This document shows, piece by piece, positions 678-36,800 of a stretch of DNA of 64,000 bases. This DNA comes from an uncultured delta proteobacterium (GTDB taxonomy: Bacteria; Desulfobacterota; Desulfomonilia; Desulfomonilales; Desulfomonilaceae). Made by a program: the position numbers and the translations under genes. Numbering within the stretch: the first letter of the stretch is position 1; every line of letters starts with the position of its first letter. The notes below the pieces were generated by a model. It ran no database searches. It saw only the letters and a list, made by a program, of their open reading frames with translations, and was not told where the DNA came from. The DNA lies in contig CAWBKB010000001.1 in the NCBI GenBank assembly GCA_963789265.1, forward strand, positions 160,001-224,000, in the 5' to 3' direction.

Positions 678-3600
678 TCAGTTCACTTCCCCCACCAAAA
701 TAAAAGGAGCCCAGTAAAACGGATGGTCGTAACCTGCCTTCCGGATCTCGTCTCGGGCAAGTCTCAGCGCTTCGAGTTTATTCTTCCCTTCCTTGAGATG
801 CTTGAAGAAGCTTTCCACGAGATTGACGGAAGCTGTTTCGGAAACGCTCCACAGGCTCATCAAGACACTTTTTGCGCCTGTGTACTGAAATGCCCGGCCC
901 ATTCCCATCGTGCCTTCACCTGAGATGCGTCGCCCGAGACCTGTCTGACATGCGGTCAGCGCGGCTATGTCCGCGTTGATCTTCAAGCCCATGACTTCAC
1001 TCAATCTCAGGAAACCATCCTGGCCCTTGGGCTCACCGACAAGGCTGAGTACCAGGACAGGCTCTTGTATTCCGGGTAAGTCTTTCCCAAAATATCCGTG
1101 GGTGGCAAATACGAGAGAGCGATACGAAGTGAGGTCTTTCCCGAGAAGGACCGACTTTTTGGCGGTCATGCCTTCATACAGGTCGGTCTTAGAAGGGTCC
1201 GATTTTTTCAAGGCCTTACCGAGTTCATCGGTGAGCGGAAGCCTGGGAAAAGTTAGGCCGCTCTCTGTTTCTATAGACATGGTCAAATCTTTCGGAAGCG
1301 TAGCCAAAAGCCTGTCCTTCTCCTGTTTGGCAAGTTTCACCAGACGCGGATCGTCACTTGAAAAGACAGGATCAACCATTGCTAATAGTTTCTGTCCGGG
1401 CTTCTGCTGCTTCCCGAGGGTTTCTTGCCAGAGTCAGGGCCGTAATTGACTGATAGTAAGAAATCGGATTGCGATCACCGAAGAATTCAGCACCGGAAGT
1501 TTGAGGTCTTTTATTGTCTTTTATGAACTTTCCGCCATCGTTGAAGACAAGCATCTCGAACGGCACGACTCCAAGGGAACCATCAGGGACAATGATAACC
1601 GGAGTATTCTTGGGCAGGTCAGGGAGGATGTCGGAAAGAAGAATGTCTGAAAGTTTCTTGCCGGATTTGAAGTCAAATTGACTGAGTTTCTTTGCGAGAG
1701 AATCATCAGGTCCCAGTTCCATAGGCTGGCGGAATTTTCTGACCAGTTCGTCAATCTCTTTTCTCGGAGTGGGTTTGAAAAGTCCTTTTACGAGATTCTT
1801 GCCTTTCGTGAGGTAAATTATGATTCCCGGATCGGTAACATGATAAGCCAACACCCATTCATTATCTTTCAGGGCGGATTGATCCAAACTCATCGGTTGA
1901 GGATACTTGGTTGCAGCGAAGAGCGGATACTGCTTGCGGAGCATATCCACATGAGCAGTCAGTTTCTGTTTGGCTTCCTTCACCTGAGGTTCAAGGACGG
2001 CTATCACTTCCTTGTTTTGCTTCTGATAAGCCTTCTGGAGATTTTTTGTCAGCGCGGCCAACTCATTCGTGAGTTGAGAGTCCTTGTCACGAATATCCTT
2101 TGGAACATCCGCACCAGCATACTCGCTCCTTTTGGATATGGATTCAGCAAAGATTCTGGCTCTGGTGTACTCGGACTCTTTGATTGCCTCCACGGGGCGG
2201 TTCATCTTTGCAAGTACGTGGGCAAGCCCCTCGTACGGCGCTGTCCGGTAAAATCCACCTATTCTCACATCAAAGAAAGTTTCGTGCTCCGTGGGGTTGA
2301 GGCTTGATCTGAGTTCCTCAGTGTATTCTATAGCCTTTCGGTAATATTCCATTGCATGGGGATTATCACCCATGCCTTCATAAGACATGCCTAGACCATT
2401 GTATGCGGTGAAAAGGTCGTCGGCATTTCTGTTTTGCTCGGCACTTTTCAGAAGGCTCTCATAGGAGTTCTTGGCTGACGGATAATCGGCTTTAACGAGG
2501 TATAGTCTACCAATAGAACTGGGGTAGTTTGCCTCTTTGATGAACGATTCGGCTCTTCCAATCTCACCCTTGTCGAGGTAGAGGTTCCCAATCGAATCTT
2601 TGGGCCATCCTGGGGAGACCCCGATCTTCTGGTAGATTTCCAGCGCCTTTTGAAAACCCGCCAAAGCCTTGTCGTACTCGCCTTGGCTGCGATAGACTTC
2701 TCCCAGATTGGTGAGAGTCACCCCTTCTCCCCTCACGTTCCCGATCTTCCTGCAAATTGCCAGGTCTTTCTCGTAAAACTCCACTGCCTTGGTATACTGA
2801 CCCAACTCCTTATATACGAGCCCCAGACCGCCCAGGCTATTCCCTTCACCATCCACATTTCCCATCTTTATCTTGATCTCCAGAGACTTCTCGTAATACT
2901 CTATTGCCTTCGTGTACTGGCCCCACCTCAGATACACATTCCCCAGGTTGTTCAGGGAGCCTCCTTCGCCCTTAAGGTCCCGGAGCTTCTGGGAGATGGC
3001 AAGGGACTTCTCGTGATACTCCGCCGCCTTCGCATACCGGCCCCAGTCCTCATTCACATTCCCCAGATTCATCAGGGCATCGGCTTCGGTACTCTGATCA
3101 CCGATCTTGCGTGCAATTTCCCGGGACTTCTCGTGATACTCCACCGCCTTCGCATACTGGCCCCAGTCATCGGTACACGACGCCCAGGGCGTTCAGGGAG
3201 ATTCCTTCGTCCTTGCGGTCCCCGAGTTTCCGGAAGATGGCAAGGGACTTCTCTTGATACTCCGCTGCCTTCGCATACTGGCCCAAGTCCCTATACACTA
3301 GCCCCAGGTTGCCCAGTGCATGCCCTTCTCCCCTCACGTTCCCGATCTTCCTGCAGATTGCCCGGGACTTCTCGTAGAATTCCATTGCCTTGGAATTCTG
3401 GCCCCAATTCCAATATACGAGGCCCAGGTTGTTCAGAGCATTCCCTTCACCCTTTACGTCTCCGATCTTTCTCTTGATCGGGAGAGACTTCTCGTAGAAT
3501 TTCACCGCCTTGGAATACCGACCCCAATAGTAATAAACGGTCCCAAGGTTGTTCAAAGCATTCCCTTTGGCCAGGACGTCCCCTGTCTTTCTCGATATCT

Positions 3601-4027
3601 CCAGAGACTTCTCTAAGCATTCCACTGCCTTAGGATACTCACCCAAAGCCTTATATACGATCCCCAGGTTGCCTAGCGTTTGTCCTTCACCCTTTACGTC
3701 TCCGATCTTTCTCTTGATCCCAAGAGACTTCGTGTAGAATTCCACTGCCTTGGTATACTGACCCCTAGCCGCGTAGATCAACCCTACACTGGTGCAAGCT
3801 AATCCGAGATTCTTTCGTTCCTTGACCCTCTGGTAGATGGCTATGGCCTGGAGGAATTTCTGCTCCGCCTTTTTCAGGTCTGCGTTGGATCGGGCTTTTT
3901 GTTGCAGAGCATACGCTTCCTTGTGGAGGCGTATCGCATCCTGCCTGGACTGGGCCATCAGCGGCGATGAAACAAGAATACAAAGTGCGGCTATTATTGC
4001 CGGGACAAGAAAGATTCGCTTGAACAT
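678..4027 (-). CDS. Exported TPR-CHAT protease 1 (signal peptide, about 10 40-aa TPR repeats, CHAT domain); two apparent +1 frameshifts near 3170 and 1420
   Basis: ORFs 3167-4027, 1372-3144 and 678-1379 join colinearly with intact paralog 10659-13286. FATHG and LTACQTG catalytic motifs, HPFYWAPFILVG terminus, AGGAG RBS. Confidence 0.9.
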
Positions 4028-4056
4028 GGCAGACTCCTAACGAATCAAAAGAAATT

Positions 4057-4092
4057 TCAGTTCACTTCCCCGACCAGAATATACGGAGCCCA
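4057..4092 (-). pseudogene. Orphan last 11 codons of a CHAT gene (WAPYILVGEVN*)
   Basis: Translation of the reverse complement matches the CHAT C-terminal motif. Confidence 0.75.
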
Positions 4093-4245
4093 TTTTTTCA
4101 CCACAGAGACACTGAGGACACAGAGGCCCTACGCGGGCGGCGAATATTTTCTTCGAGTGACCTTCTCAATTTCTACGGGCCTCCATGCTAATTACAGTCA
4201 TGGCCGTGCGCCGAGCACCTCAGTGATCTCCGTGTCTCTGTGGTT
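4093..4245. repeat. About 150-bp palindromic-ended repeat, copy 1
   Basis: Similar over its length to 19613-19753; both copies follow ggagccc. Confidence 0.75.
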
Positions 4246-4260
4246 ATTTTCGTCTTTCTA

Positions 4261-4557
4261 TCACTTCACTTCCCTCACCAATATGAACTGGAGCCCAGTA
4301 AAACGGATGATCGTAGCCCGCCTTTCTTACTTCATCCCGGCCCAACTTTAATGCCTCCAGTTTGTTCTTCCCTTCCTTGAGATGCTTGAAGAAGCTTTCC
4401 ACAAGATTGACGGAAGCTGTTTCGGGAACGCTCCAAAGGCTCATCAATACACTTTTCGCGCCTGCGTACTGGAAGGCTCGGTCCATTCCCATAGTGCCTT
4501 AACCGGAGATGCGACGAAAACCAACAACAATGCTACCAAAACAGCTTGCTTGCTCAT
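4261..4557 (-). pseudogene. Deleted CHAT gene remnant (signal-peptide-like start joined to the last ~85 CHAT codons, with stop and frameshifts)
   Basis: RRISG*GTMGMDRAFQYAGAKSVLMSLWSV...YDHPFYWAP; catalytic His/Cys region absent. Confidence 0.8.
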
Positions 4558-4891: not shown

Positions 4892-6538
4892 CTATCGGCC
4901 CTTGTGCCAAAACCAGACGGAGTGAGCCACGTCCAATTTGGCTGATTCAATGGCGTTGGACCACTCTTCGAAAGACCGTGTCTTGCGGTCACCACTGGTA
5001 AGCTTGGCCTTTCTCACTATGGCCTTTGAAATTCCCATAATTTCGTCCAGAGTACTACGAGTTTCCTGGGTTACTTCTGCACCTGCGTTCTGATCCCCTC
5101 CATGTTGTTTGATGTCTTTGGCCTCTTTTTCCAGATCTTCGAGCACAGCATTCTTGCTTCGAGACGCCACCACGTAGATTTTTTCTTTGCCTTCAGTATT
5201 ATCAAGCCTGGCCCATGCATCTTTCGCAGGTATCCAGTAAATCTTGCCCCCTTTCAACGGATTCTCCAACCTGTTTTCAGGTGTGAGAAACTCCGTCCCG
5301 GGAAACAACCTAGCGATATTCCCATGTGTGTCGATCTGGTACACGTAAACATAGCTGGTGGTATGGGGCCGGAAACCTATCTGGAAGTTCTGTTGGGAAT
5401 ACAACACAGAACCGTTGGTTATGGTGACGTCGCCGCAGAGAGGATCATTGCATTCTGCTACGCCTTCCGGGGGATTCAAACAAACGGCGTTGGTACACCT
5501 GGGGTCTTGGGCGACAAACCAAACATCCAGTTTGAGAGTGTCGTCCAGGTGCTCAAGGACCGATACGGGAAACTTGCCGCTCACGGCCCCTTCTATCTGA
5601 GGATGCTGCGCGCCCTCGGTTTCGTCCTTTGTCCGCTCATAAACATAATCGTAGATGTTTTGCAGAGTAATGACGCCGGTTCTCTGGATATCCGCTTCGC
5701 CTTTCAATCCCTTCAAGAGATAATAGGTGAAAACGCTATTCGAGAGATTAGGTTTTTCCTGGGAGTATTCGTCTGGTTTACTGGAGCTGAGAATCACCCT
5801 TCCGGTAGCGTCTTTGAACATTTTCATAAATGTTTCCATAGGGTCTTCCAGGGATTTCGTCAGTATTCTGGAGGCGCCGCCTGCGTGGCACGCATCCACA
5901 ATGAGCACGAGCCGCTTGGAATCCACACGGTCGAAGAACTTCAGGCCCGCCATGCTCACCGCGGTAGCGGCCAGATACTTGGGATCGGAATCATAGGTCA
6001 GGAAATAGAACGAGCCCGGTTCTCCCGGATCGGATCCTCCGTGACCGCTGAAAAAAAGAATCACCGAATCGTCCTTCCCAGCCTTCCGCAGATCGCCGTA
6101 AAGATATTTCTCGACTGCTTGTTTGGTGGCTTCGCGGTCGGTTAATATCCTCACGTGAATATTTTTGAAGACTTCTCGCTGGGTTTCAATGAATTGTGCG
6201 AAATCCTTGGCATCTTTCGAGGAGAGGTGGAGTTTTCGTATCGAAGGATCGGAATAGTCGGAAACGCCTACAGCGAGAGCATAAAGATCGCCTTGTCCAA
6301 GGGCCTGTCGAGCCTTGAGCCGCTGTACCACGTGGGATCGCCTGATGGCTTTTGTTCCTGCGTCATCTCCAATGGCAATTCCTTGAAAAGACGTTGCCAG
6401 AAGGGCAACCAAGGCTACGCGAAGGCATGACTGCAGGAGCGGCGTCACCATTGCCCAAAAGTGTAACTGCAATTCGATTGCCTTACTTTGATTCATAATC
6501 CGCGCACCGGCGATCTTTATTCTCTCACTGCTTCTCAT
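4892..6538 (-). CDS. Exported caspase-family (peptidase C14) protein with C-terminal DUF4384-like domain
   Basis: ALAVGVSDY, FFSGHG, IVDACHAG, QHP motifs; YVYVYQIDTHGNIARLFP DUF4384 signature; hydrophobic N-terminus. Confidence 0.88.
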   Translation of the reverse strand: MRSSERIKIAGARIMNQSKAIELQLHFWAMVTPLLQSCLRVALVALLATSFQGIAIGDDAGTKAIRRSHVVQRLKARQALGQGDLYALAVGVSDYSDPSIRKLHLSSKDAKDFAQFIETQREVFKNIHVRILTDREATKQAVEKYLYGDLRKAGKDDSVILFFSGHGGSDPGEPGSFYFLTYDSDPKYLAATAVSMAGLKFFDRVDSKRLVLIVDACHAGGASRILTKSLEDPMETFMKMFKDATGRVILSSSKPDEYSQEKPNLSNSVFTYYLLKGLKGEADIQRTGVITLQNIYDYVYERTKDETEGAQHPQIEGAVSGKFPVSVLEHLDDTLKLDVWFVAQDPRCTNAVCLNPPEGVAECNDPLCGDVTITNGSVLYSQQNFQIGFRPHTTSYVYVYQIDTHGNIARLFPGTEFLTPENRLENPLKGGKIYWIPAKDAWARLDNTEGKEKIYVVASRSKNAVLEDLEKEAKDIKQHGGDQNAGAEVTQETRSTLDEIMGISKAIVRKAKLTSGDRKTRSFEEWSNAIESAKLDVAHSVWFWHKGR

Positions 6539-7673: not shown

Positions 7674-8294
7674 TCAGGTCTCCTCTCTCAGGATCCCGAG
7701 AAGGCGGACAAGACATCTTTTCAGTTGAACCACAAGCGTGTTTGTCTTCACGCCCGTCCTATCGGCAATTTCTTGGAAAGAGATGTCGGAAAAATACCGC
7801 GCCTCGATCAGTTCTTTGCAACGTTTTTCCAGCTTGAACAAAGCCCTTTTCAATGAACCGAGCTCTTCCTGCTCCAGCAGCAGGTCTTCCTGGCTTTTGC
7901 CCGGATTAACACAAATGTGCGCCCCGTGGCCATCCGTTTGTGACTCGATCGGGTCCAAGGCAACCTGAGCTGAGAGTGTCTTCCGTTTGACTGCGGTCTT
8001 CTTCCGGAGCTGGGCAATGCACGTGTTGACCGCCACCTTGTATACGAAGGTGCCAAGATTGCTCTTGAATTTGAAGGTTCTCAAAGACCTGACGATCTCC
8101 GTCATGATCTCTTGGCACACATCTTCGACTTCTTGAGGGTCAAACCTCCATTTTTTCCACCCGGCCACGGACAATACCGTGCCATAATGGCCTTCAAGGA
8201 AATCATCCCAGGCCGTCCGGTCACCGGTGAGACATCCGGCTACGAGGGACCTCTCACGTTCAGCCGGACTGCCGGCCTCAGCCGAGTGCGCCAT
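7674..8294 (-). CDS. ECF-type RNA polymerase sigma-70 factor
   Basis: EVEDVCQEI region 2, TFVYKVAVNTCI, region 4 SFQEIADRTGVKTNTL; start set at the ATG after the upstream stop. Confidence 0.9.
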   Translation of the reverse strand: MAHSAEAGSPAERERSLVAGCLTGDRTAWDDFLEGHYGTVLSVAGWKKWRFDPQEVEDVCQEIMTEIVRSLRTFKFKSNLGTFVYKVAVNTCIAQLRKKTAVKRKTLSAQVALDPIESQTDGHGAHICVNPGKSQEDLLLEQEELGSLKRALFKLEKRCKELIEARYFSDISFQEIADRTGVKTNTLVVQLKRCLVRLLGILREET

Positions 8295-8301
8295 ATCGCG
8301 T

Positions 8302-9348
8302 CTATTTCGAAAGCTTAAATTCAACTCTTCTGTTCTCCGCCCATCCATCTTCGTTATTCTTTGGGGAATACGGTTTATCAGGCCCAAAGCCCTTGGTCGA
8401 TAGTCGGACCGGGTCTATTTTAAAGTTGGTCACCAGGTAGTTCTTTATTGCTTCGGCTCTTTGGGTGGATAGCAACATGTTCTTTCCGTACTGCCCTCTG
8501 TTGTCAGTGTGCCCCTCTATTGATACCGACAGCGTGGGCCGCTCGGCAAGCTCATTTTGCAGAGCTTTTCCGAATTCCCGAAGTTCTGGCAGCGATTCTT
8601 CTTTTATGGCGTACGACCATTCATCAAATAGAATTCTGTTGGTCTGAATGCTGTTTGGGGGTTGGATCTTTCGTATCCATTTCTTTTGTAGTCCCATTTG
8701 CCTTTCTTTACTCAACCGAGCAAAGACATTCTTGGATAAAGGCTTTGCCTCTTGATACGAGGCCGAGTGACGTTGAGCTTCTTGCAACGCCTGCCTCACA
8801 CCAGGGTCGTCCTTTGCGGCCAGTGCCTTCTTGTAGGCGTCCGCGGCCATGCCGAACTGCGCTTGATTGAAAAATAGATCACCCAGGAGCGAATAATAGT
8901 GGGCCCCTTTTTCAGGGCACAATCGCAGAATGGTTTGAACAAAAAGTATCTTGTCTTCCGCCAACATCTGCTTCTCCATGCCTTTTCTCAGCGATCCCAT
9001 GACCTTCTCGGAACAGTTAGTCCCTGGAGTAGTGAGGAGAAGTCCGTCGGTCAGTTTCTCCATCAAAAGACCGTACGCCGCCTTCTTGTCGGGTGGCGCC
9101 ATTCGGTGCTTTTGCTGTAGGACGGCCAGGCACCGCTCAGCTATGTTCCGATTCTGTCCCACAAGTTTGGACAGTGTTGTTTCGGAGGCATATTCATCTT
9201 TCAGCGTCTCGACAAGCTTTGCGTAAAACGAATTGATCGATTTAGCGGCATCCTGTGCCTTGAGATTCGGACAAGGGCTCAACAGAAGGAATGCCGAGAA
9301 AACAATGGCAAAGTGCTTAGCTTTCATGATACCGCACATGAGGCACAA
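8302..9348 (-). CDS. Exported TPR + OmpA-like peptidoglycan-binding protein
   Basis: IEGHTD, NMLLSTQRAEAIKNYL, ENRRVEF motifs; signal peptide. Confidence 0.88.
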   Translation of the reverse strand: MCLMCGIMKAKHFAIVFSAFLLLSPCPNLKAQDAAKSINSFYAKLVETLKDEYASETTLSKLVGQNRNIAERCLAVLQQKHRMAPPDKKAAYGLLMEKLTDGLLLTTPGTNCSEKVMGSLRKGMEKQMLAEDKILFVQTILRLCPEKGAHYYSLLGDLFFNQAQFGMAADAYKKALAAKDDPGVRQALQEAQRHSASYQEAKPLSKNVFARLSKERQMGLQKKWIRKIQPPNSIQTNRILFDEWSYAIKEESLPELREFGKALQNELAERPTLSVSIEGHTDNRGQYGKNMLLSTQRAEAIKNYLVTNFKIDPVRLSTKGFGPDKPYSPKNNEDGWAENRRVEFKLSK

Positions 9349-9363: not shown

Positions 9364-10473
9364 TTAGCGCTCGCCTGCGCGCACGCTGAGAATCTCAACG
9401 CGTCTGTTGGCCCGTCTCCCTGCCGTAGTTCTGTTTGTGGTCCATGCGCGGGAATCACCGGCTCCTACCGTCGAGAGAAGGGAAGACGGCACTCCGCCTG
9501 TGGTGACCAGGTATTCCTTCACTGCCCGCGCACGTCTCAAGGAAAGAGACTGGTTATAATCCTTGGACCCCGTTGCGTCGGAATGGCCTTCAATGATGTA
9601 CCGCCCTGATCTAAGAGGATCACTTTTCAGGCTGACGGCGAGTTCGTCAAGCTGTCTTTTTGTCCTGGAGGAAAGAGCAGCCGATGAAATCGGGAACGTC
9701 ACTTCGTGCAGTCTCAGTCTCGACTGGAGCTTTGAGAATTGTGGACACATGCACATGAGATTCTCTTGTTCTGTCCCCAGTCGGTCCACAATTTCAGGAG
9801 AGAGCAAGAACTTTGGATTGTCTTGGGCAATCCGGCCTCCGGCCAGTTCGAGAAGTTTCTTTGCGTGTGTGCTTTGCGGATCTATCGCGAGGATCCTCTC
9901 GAAGTAGGGCAGACTTCGCCTATACAAACCGGCATTAAGGAAAGTTTCACCCAGCCCAAGAAGGGCTTCGGAGCCATTCCTTTCAATGTTGAGGGCTTTC
10001 TCATAATTCATCACCGCATCGTCGAATCTCCCCATTTTTCTGTTTATGTCTCCGAGATTGACGTAAGCGGCTCCGTGCGAAGGGCACAATTTGACTACCC
10101 GCGCAAATTTCTTGAGTTTTTCTTCCAGGACAAGGGCTTTCAGCCCTCTTTGATAAATCTTTTCAGCAAGGGAACAATTTTTTTTACCTTTTGCAAGACC
10201 TATTAGCTCTTCAAGCTCCTGAGCGACGATCGCGTACGTGTCAGTTTTCTGTCGGTCTTGCCCCCCCTGCATTTTCTTATGAATGACATCAAGGCATTTT
10301 ACAGCCAGATTGGGTTTTGCTCGAACCAGCGCCTCCAACTTGGAGGTTCGGTCATTCTTTAGCGCACTCAAGAAATCTTTGTAGAACTCGTTCACTCCGC
10401 CGGCATGAGCGTAGGTAGAACAGATCAATATATTAAGTACGATTATGATTGCCTGTTCGCTCTGCATCCTCAT
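9364..10473 (-). CDS. Exported TPR + OmpA-like peptidoglycan-binding protein (paralog)
   Basis: IEGHSD, NQSLSLRRARAVKEYL, ANRRVEI motifs; TPRs; signal peptide. Confidence 0.88.
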   Translation of the reverse strand: MRMQSEQAIIIVLNILICSTYAHAGGVNEFYKDFLSALKNDRTSKLEALVRAKPNLAVKCLDVIHKKMQGGQDRQKTDTYAIVAQELEELIGLAKGKKNCSLAEKIYQRGLKALVLEEKLKKFARVVKLCPSHGAAYVNLGDINRKMGRFDDAVMNYEKALNIERNGSEALLGLGETFLNAGLYRRSLPYFERILAIDPQSTHAKKLLELAGGRIAQDNPKFLLSPEIVDRLGTEQENLMCMCPQFSKLQSRLRLHEVTFPISSAALSSRTKRQLDELAVSLKSDPLRSGRYIIEGHSDATGSKDYNQSLSLRRARAVKEYLVTTGGVPSSLLSTVGAGDSRAWTTNRTTAGRRANRRVEILSVRAGER

Positions 10474-10658
10474 TTGGAACTTCCCTTCTCTTGAAGCCAA
10501 CGTACAGTATAGTCCCACTTACTATAGACATTAGTAGGAAATTGATCGCCATGTTGACAACAATCTGTACACCACAGAGGCACAGAGTTCACAGAGAAAA
10601 CCATTATTTTTCTTTCTCAGTGTCCTCTGTGTCTCTGTGGTTAATTCTTGTCTTCCTG

Positions 10659-13286: not shown

Positions 13287-14076
13287 GGCAGCCTCATGAA
13301 ACATCCTTGAGTGGTTTCCCTCATGAACCAGCGTGAACCTTACCTTCGGATCATATGAGTCGGTGTCCAAAATTACTTAGTCGCATTTGCGAACGAAACG
13401 TGACACCGGATAATGGCGGATAGAATCCCCTATAGACAAACAGCGACTATTCGAGCCACCCTCATCAACTGAGCCAGCGCCATGTCCGATCATGAAGACC
13501 CCCTCCAACATCGGAATCGGATTGATTGCAGTCCTTAAAATGCGGAATGTTCCAAGTATGCGCTTAGTCAGACTTAATTGTAAAGAATTATTGCTGGATA
13601 CTGGCGGACCGTCGCGTAAGATGGCGAAGTACATGTATTTGTCTCCCTCGGCATATCTGTGTCACCTGCCTTGTCCGTTTGCGACTAACGAAAACAATGG
13701 CGAGACTTCGACGAACGGGGAGTCGGCAAATGAACAAGCTGGTTGCCGTGATGAGATTTGCGGCAAGGATTTTAGCCGCGATCCTGATCTCGCCCGCTGA
13801 CAGGGCGTTCGTGGATCGGGCCGGCTTTGGGCGCGCCTACAGGATACGTACAACACACGGTAGCCTGTACTTCTCTTGGAGAGAGGTTCTTTGACAAGTA
13901 TCCGTTTGGCTGGCCTCAGGGTTTGTCAAGCGCATAATTCCGTTCGAGGATTACGTCCCTGGAGCCGTTCACTAGTTCGGTAGCATTTCGGTTGAGCAAT
14001 GGGCAATGATCGACTTTGCCAGACGCTTCGACCCGAAGCCTTTTCGCACGGACCCTTTTTGCCGGACCGTTTACAA

Positions 14077-16448: not shown

Positions 16449-16620
16449 CGTTTCCCCCTCTTCAACCACGGCGTCGTTATGTAAGAAGCGTGAGAGCCAA
16501 CGTCCGCTCAATGTTTCAGTATATTGAACGCCAATATCCTGGTCAATAACTATTTTGGATTCGCTTTCAGGCACCCACCCATTTGCTTGAAAGTTCGGTT
16601 GATTTTCCAGATGCGAGGTA

Positions 16621-19753: not shown

Positions 19754-19825
19754 TTCATCTTTTCCTGCTTTTGCATTTCACACCTGTTCTTCCTTAACCC
19801 GTGAAGTCCGCGTATAATGCACTGC

Positions 19826-20123: not shown

Positions 20124-20162
20124 AATCGCCCGGTCTGAGAGATCTTTCCAGGAGTCAAAATC

Positions 20163-20504: not shown

Positions 20505-20546
20505 ACGATACGCACTCACATCACGTTACCAAGAAGCTGATTTGTC

Positions 20547-23723: not shown

Positions 23724-23823
23724 GGACAATCCCCATATTGGAAATATTCAGAATCCTGTATTCAGCATCCAAGGTCCCCCAAAGAGGGAGCATCTATTGC
23801 TTTAGTAGCAACCTCGCCCGAAA

Positions 23824-27700: not shown

Positions 27701-28021
27701 TCCGACTTTCTTATGTAGAACCAGGGCTTTCTCATAGTATTCCAAAGCCTGCCGATTCTGACCCAGGCTAGCATAAATTATGGCGATGTTGTTCAGCGTA
27801 CCTCCCTGCCACTTCGATCCGGTTTTGCGGAAAATCACTAAAGCCTGTTGATATTTTTGCAGCGCCTTTTGCCGGTCGTCGTTGGAACGGGCTTTAACCC
27901 TCAATTCGTTCGCCTGCTTGAAAAGGGCAATCCCTTCCTTCTGTGATTGGGCTGACCCAACGAAAGGAAAAAGAACGAACAGCATCCATAAAACAGCGAT
28001 CAAGGCGCATATTCTTTTCAT
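24705..28021 (-). CDS. Exported TPR-CHAT protease 5 (about 10 TPR repeats; frameshift near 25905)
   Basis: ORFs 25859-28153 and 24705-25922 join at KYP; FATHG and LTACETG. Confidence 0.9.
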
Positions 28022-28137
28022 GGAAAACCCCCTCCTTCTTGCAGCACTTAAGTTGGAAATGTCCTGAATTTCATGCCCGTCGGTCGGGGCCTCAAAGACC
28101 GTGGCATCAGTATGTTTTAGTAGGGAACGCGACTTGA

Positions 28138-28166
28138 AAGTGACATAACTCATTCCATATTGTCAA
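28138..28166 (-). promoter_or_regulatory. Conserved sigma70-like promoter upstream of CHAT5 (TTGACA-N17-TCACTT)
   Basis: Matches motifs at 19571 and 23824. Confidence 0.55.
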
Positions 28167-28420
28167 GAAATAAGGGCGACCAATGAGCTGTTGGGCCACC
28201 TTGTCACTATCTGAAGCTTTTTACCACTAAGGTGATCGGGGCAATTCAAGTGTCACGCGGATGTTATTCTTTCCGGGGCTCCGATGACTGCATCTCACTC
28301 ATAAGTGAGAAGCCGCGTGGACCCGAAAAATGGTCTTGACCGATTGATTGAGCCTGAAGTATCCTGGGATAATAACACAACAGTGACTTTGCCATGCTGC
28401 CGGCTGAAACAGGGGGAAAA

Positions 28421-30456
28421 ATGAAACCCGCAGCCTCTCCGAAAGAATCAACGGTTTGCACAGCCTACCCACGGCTTTTTTTCGTCCTGCTGATTCTCAT
28501 TTTCCTTTTCTACTCTCCGTGTGCAGCCGATAACCAAACTCCTAAGGCTATCCGGCGCAGTTCCCCGGCGGCCGGCGCATCTACAAAGGCTCAAAAAAGA
28601 GTCGCGCTGGTTATTGGAAATAATGAATACAAGGATGCTCCCTTACGGAATCCCGCCCATGATGCCGAGGATATTGCAAACGTCCTGCGAGGCCTGGGAT
28701 TCACAGTCTTGACAAAGATAAACGCGAATCAGAGAGAAATTGAAGACTCGGTCAGGGAATTTGTTCGGGAGATTCAAAATGGTGATGTAGCGTTATTTTA
28801 CTTCTCCGGGCATGGGGTTCAAGTTCACGGAGACAATTATTTAATTCCCGTTGGGGTTTCGATAGCCTCTGAGGCTGATGTTCGGTACAAGACTGTACCA
28901 GCGGGCTATATTCTTGCCGAAATGGACGAATCCAGGAACCGGACCAATATTTTTATCCTGGATGCGTGTCGGAATAATCCTTTCAAGAGCTTCCGATCGT
29001 TGAGCAAAGGTTTGACCATGATGGATGCCCCTGTCGGGACATTTATCGCCTATGCCACAGCCCCCGGGTCGGTGGCCGCGGACGGCACAGGCCGAAACAG
29101 CCCATACGCTGAGCATCTCATGCAGGCCATGAAGCTGAAGGGCATGAAGATCGAAGAGGTATTTAAGCAGGTGTTACGGGATGTCCGCAAAGATACAGGA
29201 GGAAAACAGGTCCCCTGGACTGCTTCATCACTGCAAGATGATTTTTGGTTCAATCCGTCAGCAAAGGCAGGCGTGCAAGAGGCTTCTCTCCCATCTTCAA
29301 CATCACCTGAAGTGACTTCGGTCCTCTCCACGAAATACAGAGAAAAAGCAGAGCGACTTGTGACTCTGCTGGTCACTCGCGGGGAAGCTGCAAGCCGGGA
29401 AGAGTTGAATCGCATGTATAAAGACCCGAAAGCAGTGAAATGGTTCCGCGAGGCAGGTGAGCAAGGCGATCCTGTGGCCCAATTAATGTTGGGTCGGATG
29501 TTCGCTCTAGGACTCGAGGTTCCTAAAGATTATGATGAGGCCGTCAAGTGGTACAGGAAAGCCGCCGAACAAGGAAATACTATGGGCCAAAGCAATCTGG
29601 GGTGGATGTGCGCGAATGGCTTCGGAGTTGCCAAAGATTATTCAGAGGCGGTGAAGTGGTATAGAAAGTCCGCCGATCAAGGAAATGCATGGGGGCAAAA
29701 CAATCTGGGGTGGATGTACGCACAAGGCAAGGGAATTGCTAAGGATTATGAAGAGGCAGTTAAGTGGTATAAGAAATCTGCCGATCAAGGAAATTCCCTG
29801 GCTCAAGGCAACTTGGGGTTTATGTACAAAAATGGTTATGGAGTAGCAAAGGACCGCACAGAAGCAATCAAGTGGTATAGAAAGGCTGCCGACCAAGGCA
29901 ATAAAAGCGCTAAGAAGGAGTTGCAGAAACTGGGCAACAGAGGGCTCTCCTTGGGGTACAGAGAGAAGGCTGAACGTGCTGGGACTTTGGTTGCCGCTAA
30001 CGGCCGAGCTGAGGAAGAGTTGATGATGTATAAGGACCCGGAAATGGTGAAATGGTTTCGCCGGGCGGGTCAGCTAGGGGATGCTGTGGCTCAGGTGTGC
30101 TTAGGCCGGATGTTTGAGCTGGGACTGGGGGTCCCCAGGGATTATCATGAGGCGGTGCAGTGGTTCAAGAAAGCCGCGTATCAAGGAAATTCCAGGGCTC
30201 AGAACAACATGGGGTTGATGTGCAGGAGCGGTACAGGGAGTTCCCAAGGATTATCATGAGGCAGTGAGGTGGTTCAAGAAAGCCGCCGAACAAGGACAAG
30301 CGAGTGCTCAAGTCAATTTGGGGTGGATGTACCAAAATGGTTATGGAGTCCACAAGGACCGTACAGAAGCCATCAAATGGTACAAAAAAGGCGGCCCATC
30401 AAGGCAATGAAGATGCCGAGAAGTTCTTGCGGAAAATGGGAGTGGCTGTCAAGTGA
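28421..30456 (+). CDS. Exported caspase-family protein with multiple SEL1 repeats (frameshifts near 30238 and 30388)
   Basis: VALVIGN, YFSGHG, LDACRNNP, QVPW; repeated AVKWYRKAAEQG...AQ.NLG.MY..G.GV. Confidence 0.88.
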
Positions 30457-30528: not shown

Positions 30529-31263
30529 ATGAAGAGCTTGATGAACCAGAGTTGGCGATACTTAGCGGCTACTCTTGCCTTGAACCTGGCTACAGCCTTG
30601 CTCCTCTCAAATGCATCAGCGGCATCAACAGATCTGGCGCACGGACTGGCCTCCATCGGGCAACCCGGCCCCGCGGCAGTCAAGTTCACGACAAAAACGA
30701 ACAAACAGCAAGGGGGAGTTTTCCAGCCGGGCGATAATGTGATTATCTACTTGACTACCAATCAACGTGCATATTTGACCATATTGGCCATAGCATCGGA
30801 TGGGAGCGTCACAGTAGTGTTGCCGAATAAATTGATGCAGAGCTGTCTGATTCAACCGAATAAGCTTTACGCTCTGTTCGGAGAGGATTCTCCGGTGCAT
30901 CTGATAATCGGGAAAAGGCAGCGCAAAGGCAAACTGTTGCTCTACTTGAGCCCGACTCCACTTGTGCTGAATCCTCTGGAAATACCGAAGGACGACAAGT
31001 GGCTTAAAATTGCCCCGAGCGACCGCCGGAAGCTTCAGATTCTCAAAGAAAAGCTTGAATCTATAGCACAAAATGAAGGATTTAACCGAGCAACTGTTCT
31101 TTTCCACGGTAAGGCAGGCAGAAACCTGGAAATTAGGCTTACGGAAGCGGCTACCAATTTGAGCAGTGAAGCAATTCCTGTCGGCACGGAAAGTTCGATT
31201 CCCGAAACGCTTACTGGGGGCCCGGGCAGAAACTCGCCACCAAAAACCAACTCGAACGAGTAG
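30529..31263 (+). CDS. Exported DUF4384-domain protein
   Basis: FQPGDNVIIYLTTNQRAYLTILAIASDGSVTVVLPN; signal peptide. Confidence 0.75.
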   Translation: MKSLMNQSWRYLAATLALNLATALLLSNASAASTDLAHGLASIGQPGPAAVKFTTKTNKQQGGVFQPGDNVIIYLTTNQRAYLTILAIASDGSVTVVLPNKLMQSCLIQPNKLYALFGEDSPVHLIIGKRQRKGKLLLYLSPTPLVLNPLEIPKDDKWLKIAPSDRRKLQILKEKLESIAQNEGFNRATVLFHGKAGRNLEIRLTEAATNLSSEAIPVGTESSIPETLTGGPGRNSPPKTNSNE

Positions 31264-31275
31264 GGCCGGATTCCT

Positions 31276-33271
31276 GTGGCAGATCACTTTGGAGCGTTCC
31301 TCAAAAAGAATAAAACATACGCGGCTTGCGTTTGTTTTTCCGTTGTCTGGGGCTTGTTAGCTACTCTCCTTATCTTTCTGTTTCCATCTCCCTTCGAGAA
31401 TTTGAATTTTAAGATATATGACTGGCAGCTCGCGATCGATCCCGTTCGGAGTTATTCGTCGGCCATTGTTCACGTAGACATTGATGATCGGGCTGTCAAA
31501 GAATACGGCCAGTGGCCCTGGGACAGGTCACTCAGCGCTAAGATAGTTGAAAAACTTTCTGAATTCGGGGCTGGGGCAATAGCATTCGACATCTTTTACT
31601 CCGCCGCGGGAAAGAGCAAAGAAGGCAATGATGCCTTCTTTGGAGCGATCAAACGAGCGGGGAATGTTGTCTCAGCCACTGGCCTTGGTCGGCTGACCGA
31701 CATCTCCGATAAGTCCATAGAGTTGCCCCGGGATCGTTCCAAGGCGGATGCACTTTACGATAAGGGGTGGTCTTTGGCGGTTCCCGGGACCTTTCACTTG
31801 TTACGGGTTTACAAGCTGCAAGATTCTGCACTACCGCTATTGCCAATAATTCAAACGTCGAGCGGAGTCGGCCACATTGCGGCTAATCCGGACAGGGATG
31901 GCGTTTATCGAAGGGTAGCGCTTCTCGTGAGAGTGGAAGACCGCTGCATCCCCAGCTTGAGTCTTTCGACATTGATGACCTATTGGAAGCTTACCGCCGA
32001 TCACATCGTTCTCGATGATAAGAGTGCAATCGAAATCAAACGAGGCTCTCGCGTAGCGAGGATTCCTGTCGATGCCTCGAGGAATGTTGTTAGTTCATTG
32101 GGGAAAACCGTGGACTAGTTTCAAGCATTACTCGGCATATGATGTCCTGAGCGACGCGCCCGATCCACAGCGAGCGGGCCGTTATAAGGACAAAATTGTG
32201 ATCGTCGGGATCACTGCTACGGGGAATGCCGATTTTGGCACCACTCCCTTAGCTCTCAATGTTCCTCTGAGCAGAATTCATTCCCACGCATTGAACACCA
32301 TTTTGACAGGCAACTTCATTTCACACGTTTCTCCCTTTCCCTGGATCATTGTCTTTTCGATTCTTTTGGCAATCTTGTTTCCCGTGATGACTTCTCGGCT
32401 GAGCTTGACGATTGAGGCCCTGTCCGCAGGGCTGATTTGTCTGGGTGCTTTTGTGGGCGCGACCGCATGTTTTCTGCTTTGGTCCTGTGACATACCCCTG
32501 ATTGAAGCTTTTTTTGTTTTCCTCCCCGCTGCGTGCGCGTCCGTGTTGATTAGGGGAACCTCGATCGAGTGGGAAGCGGCACAAACCAAAAGGGCCCTGG
32601 AACGTTATCTGCTGCCTGAGCTTCTCGAAAGATCCTTCAGCGAGGGGATGGACCCGGACCTTTCTACAAGAAGGCGAGAAACTGACGGTGGTTTTCGTGG
32701 ACATACAGCGCTTTTCCACGCTGTCCGAGTCTGTCGAAGTAGAGTACGTCAGCCGTTTCTTGAAAGATTTCTTTCAAGGAATGACACAAGCAGTCCTAAA
32801 ACATCAGGGAAGGATCCACCAATTTATCGGAGACGGCTTCTTCGCGGTCTTCGGGGACCTCATACCACTCGAAAACCACACGGAGGCAGCATTCACGGCT
32901 GCTCTGGACATGCAAAGGGAGATGGCCGGACTGAATGCTCAATGGGCAACTTCCGGGATAGCAGAATTTGCCGCGGGACTTAGGATAAGAATCGGAATTA
33001 ATACGGGAATGGTCTTTTTGGGCGACTTGGGGTCTGACCGAAGACTCGAATACACGCTTGTGGGTTCCGCCGTGAACATAGCCAGCCGACTCCAAGCTTT
33101 GGCCCCTCCCGGCGGAATCATGTTGACTTCAGAACCAGAGCCTTGTTGAAAAAACCCAATTTGTGCCAAGGGCCTCAGTATGTAAAACTAAAAGGCTTCG
33201 AACGAGACACCGAGGTGTATCGATTTTCCCTGATGCGATACAATGTTCGGAATGATCGGTTGTATCGTTGA
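31276..33271 (+). CDS. CHASE2-domain class III (adenylate/guanylate-type) cyclase, frameshifts near 32085, 32680 and 33135; end approximate
   Basis: VDIDD...GQWPWDR, FDIF, DRDGVYRR, 3 TM helices; FVDIQRFS, FIGDG, RIGINTG, VNIASRL. Confidence 0.85.
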
Positions 33272-33348
33272 AATCCATTTCTCCGATCCTTTTATGTCTT
33301 GCCACAGACGCACAGAATTCACACAGAGACCCATCAGCCTTATGAGTT

Positions 33349-34440: not shown

Positions 34441-34786
34441 TAGAGGCGGGAAGTAGGGTTATAGGGGAGCAATCCGAAACAGTTGCAAGTGGGCTTCCGG
34501 CTGGTTATTGTCGACCTCGTTTTGGCCGGGATCAGCAACAAAGATTCTAATTGACGGGCAAGTTTGCGGGGTGCTATGGTCAACGTTTAGGAAACACTCT
34601 TTAGCGTACCGGGCTCCTTGTGGGCGGGGGGAACCATCCGCTGCCGCGACCTCCAAGTCCTCCCAGTGTCAGGGCCGCCTCATGACGCCGACTTGCCCTC
34701 TTTTTTCTTGTTCGTAAAGGGTGTTCATTCGGTATTTGTTAATTCTCGCAAATTACGACTGCTGCCCTCGGGGGGCGGGAGGACTA

Positions 34787-35140
34787 ATGAACAGGCTAGC
34801 TATTGTTGTTTTGATGTTATGTTTATCTATCACCTTAGCTGTCGCGCAAAGCCGAATCGAGGTTCAAGCCGACAAAATATTCACCTTAACTCTGGAGTCA
34901 AACCCTTCAACCGGTTACCAATGGGAGTTCGCTCAACCTTTGGATGTGACTAAAGTGAAGCTCGTTGATTCATTCTACAGGAAACCAAAAACAGATCGCG
35001 TTGGGGCGGCGGGTGCTCAACTTTGGCTTTTCAGAGCAATCGGCCGTGGTGAAACTAAAATCTTAATGAAGTATGTCCAACCGTGGGAGAAAAATGCGGT
35101 TCCACAGGAAACAGCATCTTTCTCTATCATTATCAAGTAG
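34787..35140 (+). CDS. Chagasin-family (I42) cysteine protease inhibitor, exported
   Basis: NPSTGYQW, VGAAG and QPWE loop motifs; GGAGG RBS; signal peptide. Confidence 0.9.
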   Translation: MNRLAIVVLMLCLSITLAVAQSRIEVQADKIFTLTLESNPSTGYQWEFAQPLDVTKVKLVDSFYRKPKTDRVGAAGAQLWLFRAIGRGETKILMKYVQPWEKNAVPQETASFSIIIK

Positions 35141-35229
35141 TGTCATCAAACCGCGGTCCCTGCTCGCCTTTCAATAGATGCACGTGAATGCGAGCCGGAA
35201 AGACATGCCTTACATCAGGAGGCCATAAT

Positions 35230-36800
35230 ATGTTGTCCAGGAAAATCCTCGGAATTTTGTTGGTATTTCTCGGGATGTGCATCATTTGGCCCGCGAGTCA
35301 CGATCTCGAAGCACAATATCTACAGGTCGCACGCGTTGCCACAAACGAGGGGAAGAATTCTAACCTCGAGAGTAAACAAGGCCTCGATGTAGGAAACATT
35401 GTGAGAAATCGCAGCCCGCGTACTAATATAAAGGTCTTTCTGAGAGCTGACAAATCTCCTCTCAAACCAGGCGATGAGCTGCATATAACTGTCGAGACCA
35501 ACCGTGACTGTTATCTGACATTGTTGTACCCTTCTTCAGAATCCAACAAAGTAACAGTACCTTTGGCCAAATCAGGAATCCGGGTGGAAGAGCAGGATAA
35601 GAGCTAAGACCCCGACAGAAGTCCCCTCGCCCGGTGCGTCAATTCATCTCAAGGTGGACGGTCGATCACCGTACGAGCGTATCTTCGCCCTGGCTTCGAG
35701 TGAACCCGACAGCTTCTTGAGAGATAAGGATTATGTTGAAGAGCCGGGTCGCCCGCTAAAGACTCTGGCAATCGAATCGAGCGAATTACTTGAGGAGCTT
35801 CACAATCGGGCGGAAAGGCTTGTCGATACCACACGCTGGGGCACGGCCCAACTTGTAGTACGCGTGATCACCGCAAAAAACGGTCGCAAGTCCTTCGTCT
35901 CCAGCCTTTCCCCTAAAAGCGAAACTGTATTGACCGCGAAGAGTCTCAACAGACTCATAGTGAAGAAGGGATACAATTGGTCGGCTGGGGTCACGTCTCT
36001 GTCCGAGTTATCCGACCCGGAATTGAGAACCCTTTGCGGAGCAAAGGACGTTGTCGACAAAGGCGCATTGCGGCGTCACTTGATAACCAAAGACGTTCGG
36101 GGTTCGCTTGAGAGTGACAAGGCTACTCGGCCGATGCAGTGGGATTGGAGAAATGTCAACGGCAAGGATTGGACTACGCCGATAAGGCGCCAGATGAGCT
36201 GTGGTTCGTGTGTCGCTTTTGCTGTCGCCGCCGCAGTCGAAATGAACTATCAAATTGCCCGGAAGAAGGCGCATTCTGGAATCCAGTTGTCGGTGGGACA
36301 ACTATTTTCTTGCGGCTGTGGAAGGTGTTGTCGCACCGGCTGGGGTTGTGTAGAGGCCCTTGAGTTTGTTAAGTATGAAGGCCTCGTGGCTGAATCCGAT
36401 TACCCTTACCGTCCCATCAACCAAGATTGTGGGGTTGGGCTTTGCCCGTCTTCAGGCGATCAACATTCAAAAATCAAAATCTCGAAATGGTTTGCAATGC
36501 GAGATGCAGAGAATGCCAAGACATGGCTGAGCCTGCATGGTCCCTTGGCGACAACGATGTATGTATTCAAGGATTTTGCGAGTTATAAGGGTGGAGTGTA
36601 CACACGCGAGTGGTGGCAAAATGGGTGGCCACGCCATCGCGGTAGTGGGATACGATGAAAATGGAAAGTTTTGGATTTGCAAGAATAGCTGGGGTACCAG
36701 TTGGGGAGATAACGGCTGGTTCAAAATAGATTACAACCAATGCGGAATAGGGTCCAAAGACGCATTTTATGGCGTCGAATGTCTGCCTCCCGGAAAATGA
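35230..36800 (+). CDS. Exported DUF4384 + papain-like (C1A) cysteine protease; frameshifts near 35560 and 36605
   Basis: [15 protein letters not shown] (Cys), [10 protein letters not shown] (His), KNSWG (Asn); N-terminal [20 protein letters not shown]. Confidence 0.87.

Follow-up and report, generated by a model that had tools for sequence, protein, structure and literature searches.

A modular island of predicted exported caspase-fold proteases around a sigma factor and a CHASE2 cyclase in an uncultured bacterium of the Desulfomonilaceae

Relatives of caspases are abundant in bacteria, and to our knowledge almost none has a known substrate. The question of what such proteases act on is raised by a 64,000-nucleotide stretch of DNA from an uncultured delta proteobacterium of the Desulfomonilaceae (positions 160001-224000 of contig C1 in assembly G000; hereafter the window). 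In it, genes for proteases of the C14 caspase and CHAT families crowd around a sigma factor of the extracytoplasmic function (ECF) type with its anti-sigma protein, a nucleotidyl cyclase with a CHASE2 domain, and several proteins carrying the domain DUF4384. Do these genes encode a signaling apparatus, and is it one system or several? A sequence-only reading had seen a single exported cascade here, a counterpart of the protease Craspase of clustered regularly interspaced short palindromic repeats (CRISPR) systems. Our analysis favors another answer, to which we give a probability of roughly 0.45: a lineage-specific island of about 69 kb encodes an envelope-located proteolytic signaling apparatus composed of at least two separately inherited modules, which share caspase-fold proteases and DUF4384.

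Content and extent of the island

The assembly measures 6.06 Mb in 9 contigs and is 95.6% complete with 6.1% contamination (genomes, contigs and loci carry our labels G, C and L). Domains were called by Pfam scans of long open reading frames (ORFs) and of the gaps between them. Every component that the sequence-only reading had named was found in this way, including the chagasin inhibitor at 34718-35137, so that its account of the content stands; its limits of 678..36800 were too narrow, and the island extends from about C1:140 kb, some 20 kb left of the window, to window position 49173. The part to the left (C1:140.4-160 kb, loci L039 and L040) contains genes for an intact 972-aa protein with tetratricopeptide repeats (TPR) and a CHAT domain, three predicted exported ankyrin proteins, a 1083-aa BNR/sortilin-DUF4384 protein, a protein with two DUF4384 domains, a DUF4384-caspase and a DUF3160-like protein, along with two OmpA genes flanking a DUF4384-bearing gene that has the caspase Cys motif. 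All 7 DUF4384 matches of the whole genome fall within C1:146.9-190.9 kb, and 5 of its 6 C14 matches and 10 of its 17 CHAT matches lie inside the island (C1:142-209 kb). This clustering is not due to chance.

The proteases retain their catalytic signatures. CHAT domains score 137-182 bits against a Pfam cut-off of 24, and xATHG and LTACxT are present in all 7 CHAT copies examined in this genome. The caspases (Pfam E 7.1e-17 to 1.3e-44) keep SGHG and DAC, as read in their translations. We take each of these motif pairs to be the His-Cys catalytic dyad. For the caspase motifs this assignment is in line with the abstract of PMC6426788. DUF4384 is fused to peptidase domains of several kinds, namely C14, S8 (L018, L022), trypsin (L015) and, in the window, papain C1, and in one relative (G030:C17) a CHAT match and a DUF4384 match share the same open frame.

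Export was judged by a hydropathy script together with inspection of the N-termini, which is a heuristic. Both point to the near-universal export that had been claimed for every member but the sigma factor: an N-terminal signal-like or transmembrane segment occurs in 17 of 17 protease-system proteins within 678..36800 besides sigma. The usual N-terminus begins with basic residues, continues with a hydrophobic core and closes with a motif of small residues (often AQS); this pattern is seen in all TPR-CHAT proteins, both OmpA proteins, the caspases, the DUF4384 protein, the chagasin, the papain gene and the dipeptidase; ankyrin proteins adjoining the island show it as well. Transmembrane segments are present in the anti-sigma and CHASE2 proteins, and only the sigma factor and the HigB toxin-antitoxin genes are without a segment of either type. 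The protease-system proteins are thus predicted to be exported or periplasmic and to be partly anchored to peptidoglycan.

The sigma factor, anti-sigma and caspase module

Module 1 consists of an ECF sigma factor, a zinc-finger anti-sigma and a C14 caspase, to which DUF4384 proteins and OmpA-like anchors are often added. In the window the sigma gene stops 1 nt before the start of the co-oriented anti-sigma gene, and the caspase-DUF4384 gene follows after 96 nt. When the anti-sigma was searched for in 60 relatives, a match was obtained in 34 of 36 genomes of the same family and in 0 of 24 of the next family, with full-length orthologues (31-42% identity) in other genera. A profile at E 1e-20 matched 6 of 7 family genomes versus 1 of 393 others in a phylum sample, and that single match covers the N-terminal half only. 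Across 1.84 billion representatives the anti-sigma has 318 matches at E 1e-10.

We annotated 20 kb around each of the 10 best anti-sigma loci (L013-L022). In 8 of these 10 closest loci (L013, L015, L016, L018-L022), which come from 7 genomes, C14 caspase and DUF4384 genes adjoin the sigma/anti-sigma pair, and the order of sigma and anti-sigma is the same in orthologous loci. OmpA genes are also present in 7 of the 10, a DUF3160-like gene in 5 and a serpin gene in 3, while TPR-CHAT genes occur in 3, all from one 10-Mb genome. Orthologues of the caspase-DUF4384 gene occupy the same position in L013, L015, L016, L019 and L021; an OmpA gene precedes sigma in L016, L019, L020 and L021 too, and the TPR-OmpA architecture recurs beside a TPR-CHAT gene in L019. 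L013, L015 and L016 have a common order of DUF3160-like, (OmpA), sigma, anti-sigma, DUF4384-caspase, double-DUF4384 protein, OmpA, caspase-DUF4384 and OmpA. This genome has the same gene set in two parts, one in the window and one in the 20 kb left of it.

The association holds across the family. We took anti-sigma relatives with E <=1e-5 and at least 200 residues matched from 31 genomes; a C14 domain lies no more than 5 kb from 29 of these 56, where rough chance expectation is less than 1 of 56; conversely, 35 of 91 C14 matches lie near such an anti-sigma. In 26 of the 29 linked cases the caspase is downstream on the same strand (19 genomes). A second, diverged sigma/anti-sigma copy on contig C5 of this genome is followed by a caspase-ankyrin gene.

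The anti-sigma protein itself is of the ordinary zinc-finger type and, by sequence, does not look Csx30-like. H32, C36, C39 and H89, C93, C96 are invariant in 18 anti-sigma sequences, PF13490 is annotated on one relative (P0007), and the hydropathy heuristic places a transmembrane segment at 154-185. Its AlphaFold model (predicted local distance difference test score, pLDDT, of 76.9) has a helical N-terminal part, a transmembrane helix, a low-confidence stretch at 198-210 (pLDDT <50) and a compact alpha/beta domain. Since the low-confidence juxtamembrane stretch comes before the compact domain, this layout would suit site-1 cleavage. Foldseek relates the outer domain to the LpoB C-terminal domain, the TolB N-terminal domain, PelC and CsgG-type folds (E 1.7e-4 to 6e-3). 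The anti-sigma has no TPR or CHAT match in Pfam and no sequence match in the PDB, and three examined members of a set of 800-860-aa proteins that share the outer domain matched no Pfam family.

The main alternative to our reading is that the proteases are outputs of the sigma factor and not sensors. ECF factors often control their own operons, in which the response genes lie downstream. By this account an ordinary ECF pair for envelope stress or defense would respond to some other signal and induce the exported proteases, anchors and inhibitors, which would serve in envelope remodeling, degradation of foreign proteins or cell killing, and the DUF4384-CHASE2 cyclase pair would be an unrelated neighbor. 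The downstream, same-strand position of the caspase in 26 of 29 cases is what such a regulon would look like; the variable and interchangeable proteases of the relatives (S8, trypsin, C14), with their serpins, resemble a cargo set, and the defense regulon of the Myxococcus xanthus sigma factor DdvS includes the peptidase gene of its own operon, according to excerpts of PMC11506125. We nevertheless regard this account as rather unlikely. That a caspase follows both the anti-sigma of the window and its diverged second copy is unusually tight for a mere output, and across the 10 sigma loci no shared promoter motif ties the other protease genes to the sigma factor. Moreover, the DUF4384-CHASE2 pair is flanked by caspase-fold proteases in 6 of 12 loci (see below), which argues that proteolysis feeds signaling and does not only follow it.

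The DUF4384 protein and CHASE2 cyclase module

Module 2 is composed of a DUF4384 protein of about 245 aa followed by a CHASE2 cyclase. CHASE2 matches (39 rows, representing 36 distinct loci) were compared with DUF4384 matches and with a profile of the partner protein, and counted by eye. A DUF4384 gene of about 240-270 aa lies within 5 kb of CHASE2 in about 20 of the 36 loci, mostly directly upstream. The co-occurrence in other genomes on which the sequence-only reading depended is found both for this pair and for the caspase and DUF4384 genes beside the sigma/anti-sigma pair. From these matches, 12 loci (L042-L053) were chosen for having a DUF4384 match near the CHASE2 gene. Their cyclases are intact at 650-700 aa, apart from the split L050; the DUF4384 and CHASE2 genes of L045 overlap by 4 nt. 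The adjacent caspase-fold protease is a TPR-CHAT in 4 of the 12 (L042, L043, L044, L053) and a C14 caspase in 2 (L045, L052). These loci are mostly on other contigs than the sigma clusters, which indicates that the modules are inherited separately. The island is modular rather than one cassette, with at least two separately conserved modules.

The DUF4384 partner has a conserved FNR motif and, in alignments and model, a conserved TGxQG tail after a low-confidence linker. Its model (pLDDT 75) comprises a beta-sandwich with an alpha/beta element and a disordered tail. It has no Foldseek match at E 0.001 or better, and VIA-align gives Z of at most 6.3 (macroglobulin-type and other immunoglobulin-like sandwiches), under the level at which that tool is meaningful. 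Full-length relatives of the partner are confined to the same family in the 401-genome phylum sample. A predicted complex between the partner and the CHASE2 periplasmic domain, using the L045 pair, scored 0.01 against a mark of 0.32 and is evidence neither way. We know of no ligand for CHASE2, and the pairing provides it with a first candidate partner. Nothing linking DUF4384 with CHASE2, or CHASE2 with the CHAT domain, was found in the literature, the DUF4384 papers being judged by titles and abstract openings, and the branch appears to be undescribed.

Some relatives have further genes of interest next to these modules. A reverse transcriptase gene follows a sigma/anti-sigma pair, about 1.2 kb downstream of its anti-sigma gene, and genes for cyclic-nucleotide-binding kinases or a sigma-54 activator stand beside sigma or CHASE2 modules. 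The kinases and activator could be readers of the cyclase signal.

TPR-CHAT proteases and the question of a single cascade

Two pairs of TPR-CHAT genes in the island are closely related. CHAT-C and CHAT-D share 94-98% nucleotide identity in the CHAT part and CHAT-A and CHAT-B share 88%, which indicates that the array grew by local duplication. TPR arrays differ among the paralogues, and one short-read contig skips a 120-nt TPR unit of CHAT-E (27547-27668), so the length of the array varies among reads. A palindromic element resembling repetitive extragenic palindromes occurs as inverted pairs beside most CHAT genes (645-663, 4099-4245, 10570-10642, 19619-19750, 24616-24688), its 19-nt motif having 9 matches versus 0.01 expected. 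In two metagenome runs the copy at 24660-24695 has about 20-fold word depth, which suggests that this element or a similar one is common in the sequenced sample.

CHAT genes are found in 41 of 41 family genomes, with up to 20 in each, and their linkage was counted among the 150 listed of 215 matches in these genomes. Of 102 listed CHAT proteins of middle size (800-1649 aa), 18 have a DUF4384 match within 5 kb and 27 within 10 kb. The corresponding numbers for the 28 listed long proteins (~1700 aa) are 0 and 0, which suggests that these CHAT proteins of about 1700-1800 aa form a conserved lineage of their own. Nearly every family genome has one; in G000 the only frame that groups with it by score is a 376-aa open frame at C5:328941. 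The link between TPR-CHAT and DUF4384 is real but partial.

These data bear on the idea of one integrated, CRISPR-independent periplasmic counterpart of Craspase, in which variable TPR sensors would activate CHAT proteases, these the caspases, and the caspases would in turn cut the anti-sigma or act on the cyclase. All the parts do lie in one island and are predicted to be exported; in several relatives, G025:C177 and G452:C7 among them, a TPR-CHAT gene and a caspase-DUF4384 gene lie on one strand less than 1 kb apart, and TPR arrays that differ among paralogues and vary by a 120-nt unit among reads would suit variable sensors. In Craspase loci, moreover, some Csx30 proteins end in DUF4384 and Csx30 binds RpoE, as stated in the available text of bioRxiv 10.1101/2022.08.17.504292. 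However, the parts belong to at least two modules that are inherited separately and usually lie on different contigs, and TPR-CHAT is facultative: 7 of 10 sigma loci and 8 of 12 cyclase loci lack it. For the anti-sigma and the CHAT domain no sequence similarity to any solved chain is detectable, and the order of action is conjecture. We consider a single linear cascade of this type improbable. Its proposed independence from CRISPR is supported by the window, which contains no CRISPR-like array.

Broken reading frames

About 13 frame breaks or stops interrupt genes of the island, including CHAT-A (two), CHAT-D, CHAT-E, CHAT-F, the CHASE2 cyclase (two), the papain gene (two), a caspase-Sel1 gene (a TAG codon) and some genes left of the window. 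Could the island be a graveyard, consisting largely of pseudogenes that arose by repeated duplication and have no function in this organism? The breaks themselves, the CHAT fragment at 4244-4492, the in-frame TAG in a caspase and the lack of the island in genomes of the same genus would all be expected on this explanation.

Alignment with the intact paralogues CHAT-B and CHAT-C reveals a 1-nt indel in CHAT-A and a 1-nt insertion in CHAT-D. Sequencing runs holding parts of the stretch comprise three DNA runs from one study, with no RNA run among them, and we compared their short-read contigs with window positions 20000-37200. One contig, the same as the window in all else, is missing 1 nt at 30235, at the 3' end of caspase-Sel1, and another lacks 1 nt at 32075, the exact site of the first CHASE2 break. 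At the CHAT-E break, the second CHASE2 break and both papain breaks the contigs, whose coverage is thin, do not differ from the window. An indel at 21967 comes from a contig with 22 mismatches and may stem from the paralogue CHAT-C. A housekeeping-type gene outside the island, for a GH65 glycoside phosphorylase at 61060-63430 (-), is also split into overlapping ORFs (N-terminal domain 62489-63430, catalytic domain 61060-62568), which suggests indel errors outside the island as well. Because the extra base is missing from the contigs at 30235 and 32075, and because the GH65 gene is split too, at least some of the breaks are assembly or strain artefacts.

A graveyard is therefore the least probable of the explanations considered here and in our view very improbable. 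At 30235 and 32075, the two breaks spanned by a short-read contig without other mismatches, the contig lacks the extra base; the catalytic motifs are intact in every CHAT copy, and the core genes are whole: those for sigma, anti-sigma, caspase-DUF4384, both OmpA proteins, CHAT-B, CHAT-C, the DUF4384 partner and the chagasin.

A model for the island and its implications

In the reading that we favor, that of at least two envelope-located modules, the anti-sigma of module 1, a single-pass zinc-finger protein, would hold the ECF sigma factor. The exported C14 caspase-DUF4384 would remove the small periplasmic domain of the anti-sigma, possibly assisted or primed by an exported TPR-CHAT, and that cut would lead to intramembrane cleavage, sigma release and higher expression of the same cluster. 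OmpA-type proteins may tie the components to peptidoglycan. In module 2, the secreted DUF4384 protein would act with an adenylate or guanylate cyclase through the latter's periplasmic CHASE2 domain, and a neighboring TPR-CHAT or caspase would process the DUF4384 partner, thereby converting proteolysis into a cyclic-nucleotide signal; the proteolysis that modulates the cyclase might also be carried out by the partner. Chagasin here and serpins in the relatives may hold the proteases in check. Tandem duplication would have multiplied the TPR-CHAT genes while their TPR arrays diverged. The data themselves show which genes and catalytic motifs are present, how gene order is conserved and which genes are co-located; who cuts whom, the trigger and the regulon are modeled here on regulated intramembrane proteolysis and on the DdvA/DdvS pair.

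Several observations weigh against this model. Cleavage and contact between members are proposed by analogy, and the order sigma, anti-sigma, protease fits a protease that is a sigma output equally well. No -35/-10-like dyad is shared upstream of the 10 sigma genes, any one dyad occurring in at most 3 of 10 loci. The linkage is incomplete at every level: L014 and L017, 2 of the 10 closest loci, have none of the protease-cluster genes, 27 of 56 anti-sigma relatives have no C14 match within 5 kb at the threshold used, and 75 of 102 listed mid-size TPR-CHAT genes have no DUF4384 match within 10 kb. Six genomes of the same genus (G001-G006) lack a close anti-sigma orthologue, five having paralogue-level matches (E 3e-15 to 2.9e-5) and G001 none, from which it follows that the island is dispensable. 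The roughly 13 breaks leave the function of several members in this organism uncertain, with the extra base absent from short-read contigs at two of them only.

A broader idea extends from these data, and as a whole we think it quite doubtful. DUF4384 would serve as a general docking domain or pro-domain, connecting at least four catalytic types of exported protease (C14, CHAT, subtilisin/trypsin, papain) in inhibitor-controlled extracytoplasmic cascades and linking them to stand-alone scaffolds, CHASE2 cyclases and the Csx30 of type III-E loci. Such cascades would be a periplasmic counterpart of the serpin-regulated cascades of animal innate immunity, would have two read-outs (sigma release and a cyclic nucleotide), and might be a pool from which the Csx30-RpoE module of Craspase was drawn.

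For the search for substrates of bacterial caspase relatives, the island supplies genetically linked candidates, namely an anti-sigma whose periplasmic domain is small and the secreted DUF4384 protein that accompanies CHASE2, together with candidate regulators in the chagasin and, in relatives, the serpins. Should the sigma factor prove to be gated by the proteases, the island would represent a split and probably ancestral-style form of the switch proposed for DdvA, and an experimentally simpler system, with the protease separate from its substrate.

Features of the window and its surroundings

Coordinates are collected in Table 1. The true 3' end of the caspase-Sel1 gene at 28394-30259 is probably further downstream, as Sel1-type repeats run to about 30388. 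The ORF that overlaps the HigB toxin gene downstream may be its antitoxin, and this locus, between TPR-CHAT-C and TPR-CHAT-D, is probably not part of the protease system. The 226-aa membrane protein at 23970-24650 has no significant family in Pfam, PADLOC or NCBIfam. The chagasin I42 gene is directly upstream of the papain C1 gene (Peptidase_C1 at 35555-36797).

Table 1. Genes of the protease island in the window, with accompanying genes; the last row refers to loci of relatives.
Feature	Position	Strand	Basis and remarks
TPR-CHAT-A: signal peptide, TPR array, CHAT	678..4027	-	three ORFs (3167-4027, 1372-3144, 678-1379); Pfam; FATHG and LTACQT kept; N-terminus signal-peptide-like (MFKRIFLVPAIIAALCILVSSPLMAQS)
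CHAT C-terminal fragment, remnant copy	4244..4492	-	Pfam CHAT profile positions 211-288, E 2.1e-16; repeat family D2
Exported C14 caspase with C-terminal DUF4384	4892..6538	-	Peptidase_C14 7.1e-17, DUF4384 3.8e-11; SGHG and DACHAG; hydrophobic segment at residues 29-57; directly downstream of anti-sigma gene
Single-pass zinc-finger anti-sigma, 345 aa	6635..7672	-	two HxxxCxxC motifs; transmembrane ~154-185; periplasmic alpha/beta domain ~185-345
ECF (group 4) sigma factor	7674..8387	-	Pfam Sigma70_r2 and r4_2; TIGR02937 87.9 bits (cut-off 42.9); PDB relatives SigH, SigW, RpoE
Exported protein with C-terminal OmpA-type peptidoglycan-binding domain	8302..9348	-	Pfam OmpA 2.3e-17; signal-like N-terminus; upstream of sigma
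Exported TPR-OmpA protein	9364..10518	-	Pfam OmpA 1.2e-20 and TPR
TPR-CHAT-B, intact, 903-aa ORF	10659..13370	-	Pfam CHAT 3.4e-46; FGTHG and LTACQT; signal peptide begins at internal Met; hairpin repeat between CHAT-B and next gene
Exported M15 D-Ala-D-Ala dipeptidase (VanX-like)	14077..14781	-	Peptidase_M15 7.2e-47; NCBIfam VanX 226.7 bits, under its cut-off of 320; signal-like N-terminus
C14 caspase-Sel1 with in-frame TAG where paralogue has Tyr	14886..16574	-	Pfam; open frame of 579 aa with 1 TAG
TPR-CHAT-C, intact, 966 aa	16621..19521	-	Pfam CHAT 3.2e-50
HigB toxin gene (19818-20120) and overlapping downstream ORF	19818..20501	+	HigB_toxin 1.4e-25; downstream ORFs without family match
TPR-CHAT-D, two ORFs through 1-nt insertion relative to CHAT-C	20885..23729	-	alignment with CHAT-C; Pfam
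Membrane protein of unknown family, 226 aa	23970..24650	-	two hydrophobic regions
TPR-CHAT-E, two ORFs	24705..28153	-	Pfam
Exported C14 caspase-Sel1	28394..30259	+	Pfam C14 1.3e-44, Sel1 5.4e-60
Stand-alone exported DUF4384 protein	30529..31263	+	Pfam DUF4384 4.6e-12
CHASE2 sensor, transmembrane segments and class III nucleotidyl cyclase, three frames in assembly	31276..33149	+	Pfam CHASE2 in two pieces and Guanylate_cyc
Exported chagasin-family (I42) inhibitor	34718..35137	+	Inhibitor_I42 6.2e-24; signal-like N-terminus
Signal peptide, DUF4384 and papain C1 peptidase, two frameshifts	35188..36797	+	DUF4384 profile 2-32 in 35188-35604; DUF4384 34-81 and C1 2-159 in 35555-36655; C1 163-215 in 36531-36797; catalytic His/Asn region in +1 frame
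TPR-CHAT-F, sixth copy, three ORFs	45092..49173	+	Pfam; FATHG and LTACQT; signal-like N-terminus; beyond the range of the sequence-only reading
Reverse transcriptase, cyclic-nucleotide-binding kinase and sigma-54 activator genes of relatives	L052 (G029:C32) 16621-17916; L017 7610-9109; L018 448-3084; L053 4305-5735		

Around these genes the window contains other material. Positions 37049-37130 have a contig depth of about 400 in run X3, with many different flanks and joints; this stretch, which overlaps an ORF (36567-37130) without family match, looks like a widespread repeat. At 38036-42994 (+), beyond the papain gene on the same strand, lie genes for a PadR regulator, a 182-aa protein of unknown family, an M48 peptidase and a protein of 762 aa whose DUF4139/MuiA-like similarity is only weak. 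Ankyrin-SH3 and ankyrin-MORN proteins with neighbors of unknown family are encoded at 50011-56762 (-), and two 120-nt repeat arrays of similar consensus fall in adjacent genes there (53337-53639, 91% matches within the array; 55512-55814, 89%).

Comparison with known systems

Module 1 has the general form of canonical regulated intramembrane proteolysis (RseA/DegS/RseP, RsiW/PrsW), with a single-pass anti-sigma, a cytoplasmic sigma-binding domain and a removable extracytoplasmic domain. The canonical site-1 protease is of the DegS or PrsW type, whereas the candidate here is a caspase-fold enzyme from the same cluster. The available text on Tt-TolB describes an anti-sigma that is annotated with a TolB domain outside the membrane and binds its sigma factor (PMC3397946); its architecture, a 39-residue N-terminus and a TolB region of about 580 residues, is unlike that of the island protein.

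C14 genes have been seen in operons with sigma factors before, in Myxococcus, Anaeromyxobacter, Haliangium, Sorangium, Ralstonia and Fibrobacter (Asplund-Samuelsson et al. 2012, PMC3501461). The excerpted text of that survey also reports OmpA in 14 metacaspase operons, operons with several metacaspases in Deltaproteobacteria, and an N-terminal helix in many metacaspases that may be a signal peptide. These excerpts concern co-occurrence only; they offer no mechanism and mention no link to an anti-sigma, DUF4384, CHASE2 or TPR-CHAT. Among literature titles and abstract openings we found no study centered on a sigma/anti-sigma/C14 operon.

Craspase (Cas7-11, the TPR-CHAT protein Csx29, Csx30, Csx31 and RpoE) resembles the island in having a TPR-CHAT, an ECF-type sigma factor and a sigma-binding protein in one locus, and also at the level of domains, DUF4384 forming the end of one Csx30 group in the portions of bioRxiv 10.1101/2022.08.17.504292 at hand. 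Craspase is cytoplasmic and RNA-guided, whereas the island proteins are predicted to be exported and their anti-sigma is a classical zinc-finger protein. The window has no Rfam match and no Cas domain among its Pfam matches; no search for Cas7-11 was made elsewhere in the genome. PDB sequence searches with the anti-sigma, the CHAT domain and a CHAT profile revealed no similarity to solved Csx30 or Csx29 chains: with HMMER, neither a single CHAT domain nor an 11-sequence profile matched any PDB chain at E up to 1, and hence no solved chain of DdvA or Csx29. Homology to Craspase parts is thus not detectable by sequence, and DdvA/DdvS is the nearer published analogue. Databases of defense systems and families add little to this picture, as PADLOC 2.0 gives only generic matches to caspase, MotB/OmpA (ZorB), TPR and cyclase (PycC) domains, without matching partner genes, and NCBIfam gives generic matches only.

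DdvA of M. xanthus, as described in excerpts of PMC11506125, is a zinc-finger anti-sigma with a periplasmic TPR-CHAT whose His-Cys dyad faces the juxtamembrane linker. Self-cleavage of DdvA before RseP acts is a proposal of that paper, in which DdvA without its periplasmic domain is degraded by RseP; the sigma factor DdvS drives a defense regulon that includes genes of a cyclic-oligonucleotide-based antiphage signaling system (CBASS), CRISPR genes and a peptidase gene in its own operon. The likeness to the island extends to an ECF sigma factor with a single-pass zinc-finger anti-sigma, to a periplasmic TPR-CHAT with a His-Cys dyad (predicted here), to the proposed logic of a caspase-like site-1 cut followed by RseP, and to a further peptidase gene in the same operon. 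There are differences as well. DdvS controls CBASS and CRISPR genes, and none were seen in the island, where PADLOC matches are generic and the window holds no array. In DdvA the TPR-CHAT is fused to the anti-sigma, whereas the island anti-sigma has a small outer domain similar to LpoB and the TolB N-terminus and is accompanied by separate TPR-CHAT and C14 proteases that are predicted to be secreted. The DdvA/DdvS system as described is without DUF4384, OmpA anchors and a cyclase branch, all of which are present in the island. The island is best classed with ECF signaling linked to caspase-fold proteases, as a split and expanded variant that has an added DUF4384-CHASE2 branch.

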